From Escherichia coli (GTDB lineage: Bacteria > Pseudomonadota > Gammaproteobacteria > Enterobacterales > Enterobacteriaceae), in NCBI RefSeq assembly GCF_003334305.1, contig NZ_QOWS01000002.1: a stretch of 64,000 bases of DNA; one strand, given 5' to 3'. Made by a program: the position numbers and the translations under genes. Of the stretch, positions 35,627 through 35,927 are shown in pieces. How positions within the stretch are numbered: position 1 is the first letter of the stretch; each line of letters opens with the position of its first letter. The notes beneath the pieces were generated by a model. It made no database searches, was not told the DNA's origin, and saw nothing but the letters and a program-made list of their open reading frames with translations.

Positions 35627-35873
35627 TAAGAATTTCTTTACTGACAGGGTGAGCAGGGCACTTTTATCCTGTCAGTTCGTTTTACGCACTTCTTCCGGGC
35701 TATATACCCTTCTCGGCAGTTTTTTAACGCCGCTATACGCCTCACAGGGCTCTTAAGCACCGACGTTGACTTGTGACCTGTAAAGTACAATATCCCTGTG
35801 TTTAGGCGTTATACATCGTCGCAAATATGATGAAGGCTAATGCTGTCGGTTTATGGAAAAGTTGCTTTGGGTA

Positions 35874-35903
35874 AACAAAAAAACGGCCCCAGAAGGGGCC
35901 GTT
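35874..35903 (-). terminator. Rho-independent terminator after adhE
   Basis: acggccccagaaggggccgt with A-run on the plus strand. Confidence 0.55.
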
Positions 35904-35927
35904 TATATTGCCAGACAGCGCTACTGA

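Follow-up and report, generated by a model that had tools for sequence, protein, structure and literature searches.

The classical target consensus of IS4, known from the literature of the 1980s, is AAA-N20-TTT. Elements of the IS4 subgroup carry -AATR ends and generate direct repeats of 10-13 bp, and for some members a strong, even 'spectacular', specificity has been described in the arms on either side of the target (PMC2266710). In Escherichia coli K-12, the spacer between the genes tdk and adhE is occupied by ISZ, a 989-bp decayed IS4-family element. In MG1655 this place is annotated as 'insertion sequence:ISZ' together with the insZ pseudogene b4573, and at the same place in BW25113 the annotation reads 'IS4 family transposase, frameshifted'. 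The terminal inverted repeats of ISZ are 18 bp long and imperfect, CAATGCCG(T/A)TCA(C/G)TTAAG, and a full-length IS4-family element of ∼1.43 kb on plasmid pDEC5A-4 has ∼92% identity to ISZ, which compared with it is short of ∼410 bp internally. In mutation-accumulation lines, ISZ was present as a single copy and no transposition was seen (PMC5009759). Moreover, ISZ' has been tabulated as present in K-12 and missing from strains W, B and Crooks, so that its lack in strains other than K-12 is documented in the literature and is an ordinary strain polymorphism (PMC3032704).

Here we analysed a stretch of 64,000 nt of E. coli DNA (the window, taken at its full length) in which tdk and adhE are separated by a short spacer. 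The initial annotation had put this gap at about 300 bp and had placed IS-derived pseudogene fragments between the two genes in K-12. Both statements were borne out, since the gap was measured as 301 bp and ISZ/insZ is annotated at this position in MG1655; a compact spacer of the same size is not found in K-12, where tdk and adhE stand 1301 bp apart.

Anatomy of the tdk-adhE spacer

The stop codon of tdk ends at 35626 and that of adhE, on the minus strand, starts at 35928, which delimits the 301-bp spacer (Table 1); PGAP gives tdk and adhE the same coordinates in the colinear strain M8. A hairpin was found near each end of it. The adhE hairpin, which lies 23 nt past the adhE stop codon, has a 10-bp G+C-rich stem (7 G-C pairs) and a 4-nt loop followed by U7, and its folding energy is -23.6 kcal/mol (z -3.6 against shuffled sequence). 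For the hairpin following tdk the corresponding values are -20.8 kcal/mol and z -4.0. Both spacer hairpins thus consist of a G+C-rich stem-loop and a following U-run located 3' of a stop codon, which is the arrangement of an intrinsic terminator, and judged by fold and motif the spacer would provide one intrinsic terminator each for tdk and adhE.

Table 1. Features of the tdk-adhE region and vacant insertion sites, in window coordinates
Feature	Position	Strand	Basis
tdk (thymidine kinase), 205 aa	35009..35626	+	ORF list; PGAP in colinear strain M8, identical coordinates
Convergent tdk-adhE spacer, IS-free unoccupied form, 301 bp	35627..35927		Sequence; contiguous in 2204/5426 complete E. coli genomes
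Putative tdk terminator, hairpin 35640-35676, then UUCGUUUU	35640..35684	+	Fold and partial consensus-scan match
Predicted adhE intrinsic terminator, stem-loop 35881-35904, then U7GUUU	35870..35904	-	Terminator scan and fold
Single-copy CCCCAGAAGGGG, adhE hairpin apex	35887..35898		Junction comparison; 10-12 bp duplicated by IS4-subgroup insertion in other strains
adhE (aldehyde/alcohol dehydrogenase), 891 aa	35928..38603	-	ORF list; PGAP in colinear strain M8
Empty site of the K-12 ∼124-bp ERIC/IRU repeat, just after narK	21604..21609		Alignment break; ERIC core in K-12 extra piece
Empty IS5U/insH21 site, ychE-oppA gap (upstream of oppA)	39977..39980		Alignment break; MG1655 annotation

The two hairpins are separated by ∼200 bp that carry no annotation. 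Hence the statement in the initial annotation that the spacer holds just the adhE terminator has to be amended, as it left out both the tdk hairpin and this central part. When the spacer was compared with Rfam at permissive settings, all matches stayed below threshold (Atu_C8, E 0.024; STnc350, E 0.56) and were driven by the terminator hairpin; no evidence of an sRNA in the ∼200 bp was obtained. Two small ORFs were listed, one of 50 aa with a TTG start on the minus strand (35638-35790) and one of 40 aa on the plus strand (35840-35962), and neither of them is annotated in the records examined.

In K-12, the adhE terminator hairpin is split by ISZ, which is inserted at its apex. The element is bordered there by a 10-bp direct duplication, CCCAGAAGGG, which occurs in the window as a single copy at 35888-35897. 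Due to the presence of just one copy of this sequence at the hairpin apex, the window represents the exact empty-site sequence that gave rise to the K-12 allele. On the minus strand of K-12 (segment L003 39320-39446), a strong terminator-like hairpin, ACGGCUUCC...GGGAGCCGUUUUCUU, is located ∼95 nt past the adhE stop codon, within the end of ISZ. It is the first good one downstream of adhE and may act as a replacement terminator of adhE in K-12.

Occupied and empty forms of the adhE terminator

The state of the site was scored in 5426 complete E. coli genomes by means of queries that span the junctions, and 5412 of the genomes could be assigned. An empty, contiguous spacer like that of the window was found in 2204 of the 5426 genomes, with flank identity ranging from 95.9 to 100%, and the site is occupied in ∼59% of the complete genomes: by ISZ of the K-12 type in 1884/5426, by IS4 in the minus orientation in 1134/5426 and by intact IS4 in the plus orientation in 190/5426. 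The 1134 minus-orientation elements are mostly an 1145-bp form that has lost 270 bp internally and is typical of ST131 and B2-type strains, and no more than 112 are full length.

All these occupied alleles show (T/C)AATGCC... ends at 35887-35898, whether the element is ISZ, the deleted IS4 or an intact IS4 of either orientation. The elements are flanked by duplications of 10 bp for ISZ, 12 bp for the deleted IS4 in the minus orientation (CCCCAGAAGGGG), 12 bp for the intact IS4 in the minus orientation (CCCCAGAAGGGA, a target allele with G>A) and 11 bp for the intact IS4 in the plus orientation (CCCCAGAAGGG), and the window holds 35887-35898 as a single copy. The two element types, the two orientations and the differing duplications point to several independent insertions into one 12-bp target, at least three and probably four by these junctions. 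Three events are the firm minimum because the deleted and the full-length IS4 of the minus orientation share orientation and duplication position and could go back to one event.

Five further IS4 targets were reconstructed from complete genomes. Four of the five lie in apices of terminator hairpins, downstream of glgP, beside the 3'-end of eno, in the raiA-bamD gap and downstream of glcA, and each of these four combines an A-run, a G+C-rich stem, a short loop and a T-run with duplications of 11-14 bp; three of the four were taken from a ranking that favours query-like flanks, and the frequency of hairpin targeting is thus overstated in this sample. The IS4 resident in K-12 occupies an AAA-N20-TTT site with no hairpin and is the lone support found here for that consensus. 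From these sequences, the adhE terminator appears to be a preferred target of IS4-type elements, of which the window carries the vacant form, and such a preference would be the cause of the recurrent insertions.

Outgroup spacers were obtained from chromosomal fragments filed as plasmids. In Salmonella enterica (CP101356.1), adhE and tdk are convergent with an IS-free spacer of 196 bp, and this spacer ends in AAACAAAAAAACGGCCTCAATTGAGGCCGTT, a hairpin homologous to the E. coli adhE terminator. In Klebsiella pneumoniae (NZ_CP132641.1), the genes are convergent as well, with an IS-free spacer of 147 bp and an analogous hairpin at the matching place beside the adhE stop codon. Since the duplicated target is single-copy in the window and the Salmonella and Klebsiella spacers are compact and IS-free, the compact spacer is taken to be the ancestral form, in agreement with the earlier suggestion of a less disrupted ancestral arrangement. 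We also scanned species-representative genomes with the 18-nt hairpin core CGGCCCCAGAAGGGGCCG; none of the 48 loci retrieved had tdk, adhE or hns by tblastn, and they were rejected as outgroup empty sites, being chance matches or unrelated terminators.

Content and strain background of the window

The window is plain core chromosome without IS, prophage or integrase. No transposase, integrase or phage gene is annotated in the colinear interval of M8, and in the alignments with K-12 and M8 any insertion private to the window was at most 3 bp long. When the whole window was run by megablast against 72,556 plasmids, only 34, 115 and 35 records matched. The matches listed were chromosome-like records filed as plasmids, with no IS, and the organism breakdown of the remaining matches points to distant housekeeping homologues. 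A common enterobacterial IS would have matched thousands of records. In the corresponding megablast against 50,697 phage records, only 7, 10 and 15 records matched, and those listed were either short, host-like contigs without annotation or the host flanks of prophages with ompW as their integration site. Long-range inverted repeats of the IS type were absent from the window, in which only short imperfect ones inside genes were seen. Scanning the window for REP and ERIC motifs gave one match resembling a REP tail, near 28741, and a weak one resembling a REP head, which lies within a gene; no ERIC element was detected. Annotation, alignments, both megablast screens and the repeat search therefore all agree with the initial observation that these 64 kb contain no transposase, integrase, phage gene or IS inverted repeat.

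As a side observation, the plasmid collection includes chromosomes or chromosomal fragments filed as plasmids (NZ_OL790696.1, CP101356.1, NZ_CP132641.1 and others). One such record is a 4.8-Mb 'plasmid' of E. coli H240 that is 100% identical to 21500-64000 of the window except for a 119-bp gap at the tRNA-Tyr locus.

By blastn, the window is colinear with MG1655 from ∼1,257,214 to 1,324,700 (ychF to yciO), with 98.9-99.7% identity per segment, and with M8 at 99.5-99.7% identity. The closest genomes among the matches seen were those of E. coli H240, M8 and ECOR29. K-12 has extra sequence at three places, which correspond to ISZ, IS5U/insH21 and a ∼124-bp ERIC/IRU repeat. The window is without all three, and its numbers of LDR units and tRNA-Tyr genes differ from those of K-12. 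With an identity to K-12 of ∼99%, the window is not K-12; the non-K-12 background proposed earlier, including the LDR and tyrT differences on which it drew, thus holds (two LDR units against three, one tRNA-Tyr gene against two).

Two of these differences concern repeated units. The single tRNA-Tyr gene of the window (29020-29104, minus strand) lies beside an RtT element within 28836-29114, and M8, H240 and K-12 have tyrT and tyrV at this locus. Compared with M8 and H240, exactly one 119-bp unit (tRNA plus spacer) is missing, and its loss could be due to recombination between identical tRNA genes or to collapse of the repeat in assembly. In 11872-12880 the window carries two LDR/rdl toxin-antitoxin units, with rdlD matches at 12111-12176 and 12647-12712; there are three units in K-12 (ldrABC) and in M8, and the difference amounts to one 535-bp unit.

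The remaining differences concern sites at which K-12 or prophage-bearing strains carry additional DNA. The alignment blocks on either side of the IS5U/insH21 position overlap by 4 bp (39977-39980), which fits the usual duplication made by IS5. In M8 the ychE-oppA gap contains a 98-aa 'hypothetical protein', which corresponds to 39884-40180 of the window (minus strand) and overlaps the IS5 insertion point of MG1655. The ERIC/IRU repeat of K-12 (segment L003 23350-23478) falls within the interval that carries the annotation of the sRNA narS (b4813) and is missing from both the window and M8, so that the 3' region of narK differs substantially between strains. Furthermore, 53822-54427 of the window, comprising the 3'-end of ompW and the adjacent yciE, matches the host flanks in records of the PPompW, P-EibA and Stx2a prophages, in which these ompW/yciE flanks are annotated as 'duplication due to insertion'. 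This match indicates that the window has the vacant attachment site of these prophages. Known integration sites are vacant in the window in four instances, namely an IS4 target, an IS5 target, an ERIC site and the ompW prophage attachment site.

Origin of the compact spacer and comparison with known systems

With high probability, the 301-bp spacer represents the ancestral state of the region in which these two housekeeping genes converge, and it has never been interrupted by an IS4-type element. The same sequence would be expected if the lineage of the window had lost ISZ or IS4 by precise excision, e.g. through recombination between the 10-12 bp duplicates, and the compact spacer were a reversion. 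Occupied states are indeed very common at ∼59% of complete genomes, ISZ is found in strains that match the window at 99.7% identity in the flanks, and a clean event would yield exactly what is observed. However, this route is unparsimonious, and precise excision of an IS across repeats of 10-12 bp is rare. The perfect empty site is moreover shared by 2204 genomes of diverse background, and Salmonella and Klebsiella are empty at the site. We regard excision as very improbable, given also that ISZ never moved in mutation-accumulation lines (PMC5009759), and the sequences favour a site that was never occupied over one that was cleanly excised.

Alternatively, an assembler could have dropped a repeated IS and joined its flanks, and collapse of this kind could explain why the window has fewer repeats than its closest relatives at two other loci (a single tRNA-Tyr gene where they have two, and two LDR units where they have three). 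Such an artefact is extremely improbable at the adhE terminator, where the junction consists of one perfect hairpin, present as a single copy and the same as in 2204 complete genomes. A dropped IS normally leaves a contig break or both copies of the duplication, and ISZ, being single-copy in K-12 (PMC5009759), would not have confused the assembly. The clean absence of both K-12 insertion sequences of the interval would also be shared by an engineered IS-free K-12 derivative, i.e. a reduced genome from which ISZ and IS5 were removed on purpose. This origin has practically no probability left and was rejected on account of the divergence from MG1655, which is ∼0.3-1.1% in every aligned segment and amounts to hundreds of substitutions. 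The ERIC, LDR and tyrT regions differ too, and H240, to which 21500-64000 of the window is 100% identical except for the 119-bp gap at the tRNA-Tyr locus, is a natural isolate.

For a spacer that has never been interrupted, the following course of events can be proposed. The adhE terminator, with its A-run, G+C-rich stem, 4-nt loop and T-run, would be a symmetric site of the type favoured by IS4-subgroup transposases, and cuts on the two strands, offset by roughly one turn of the helix about the hairpin apex, would leave 10-12 bp duplicated on either side of the inserted element. An element would have landed here in K-12 and in many other lineages and later decayed, to ISZ in K-12 and to the internally deleted IS4 in B2/ST131-type strains, and some strains carry an intact IS4 at the adhE terminator in one or the other orientation. 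The lineage of the window, which is non-K-12 and close to H240, M8 and ECOR29, would never have been struck and would have kept the intact terminator and the short spacer.

These results have little import for general biology. What is mildly new is only that one terminator has been struck repeatedly by IS4-type elements, and this is a further instance of the known target preference of IS4. The insertions into what would be a species-wide hot spot might persist in major lineages because destruction of the adhE terminator is advantageous and not merely by neutral hitch-hiking; we regard such an advantage as improbable. In K-12, the apparent replacement of this terminator by the hairpin inside the ISZ end could change the 3'-end of adhE or read-through into tdk. 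On the practical side, the spacer is a possible simple lineage marker, since it can readily be scored as empty, as carrying ISZ, as carrying the deleted IS4 or as carrying an intact IS4 of either orientation, i.e. as one of four states. It also offers a clean natural example of IS4-type elements in the apex of an intrinsic terminator.

The nearest described counterpart is the ISZ/insZ locus (b4573) of MG1655, which lies at the same chromosomal site between the convergent tdk and adhE genes, with flanks 98.5-99.7% identical to the window; there the 989-bp element splits the adhE terminator, whereas the spacer of the window is uninterrupted. Like the window, Salmonella and Klebsiella have the convergent gene pair with a compact, IS-free spacer and an A-run followed by a terminator hairpin at the adhE end. 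Their spacers are shorter, however, and in neither of them does the middle of the E. coli spacer (∼200 bp) have a clear counterpart; the stem apex of Salmonella reads CTCAATTGAG where E. coli has CCCCAGAAGGGG. As in bidirectional terminators, the adhE hairpin is bordered by A- and T-runs on both sides, but its plus-strand T-run (TTTATATT) is weak, which makes two-way action uncertain. Compared with IS4 (insG) and the IS4 subgroup, the (T/C)AATGCC ends and the 10-12 bp repeats of the occupied alleles match the published hallmarks (PMC2266710). Most of the IS4 targets sampled here are terminator hairpins, in contrast to the resident K-12 site with its AAA-N20-TTT sequence, and the window presents the matching target of A-run, hairpin and T-run in vacant form, with zero IS4 sequence.
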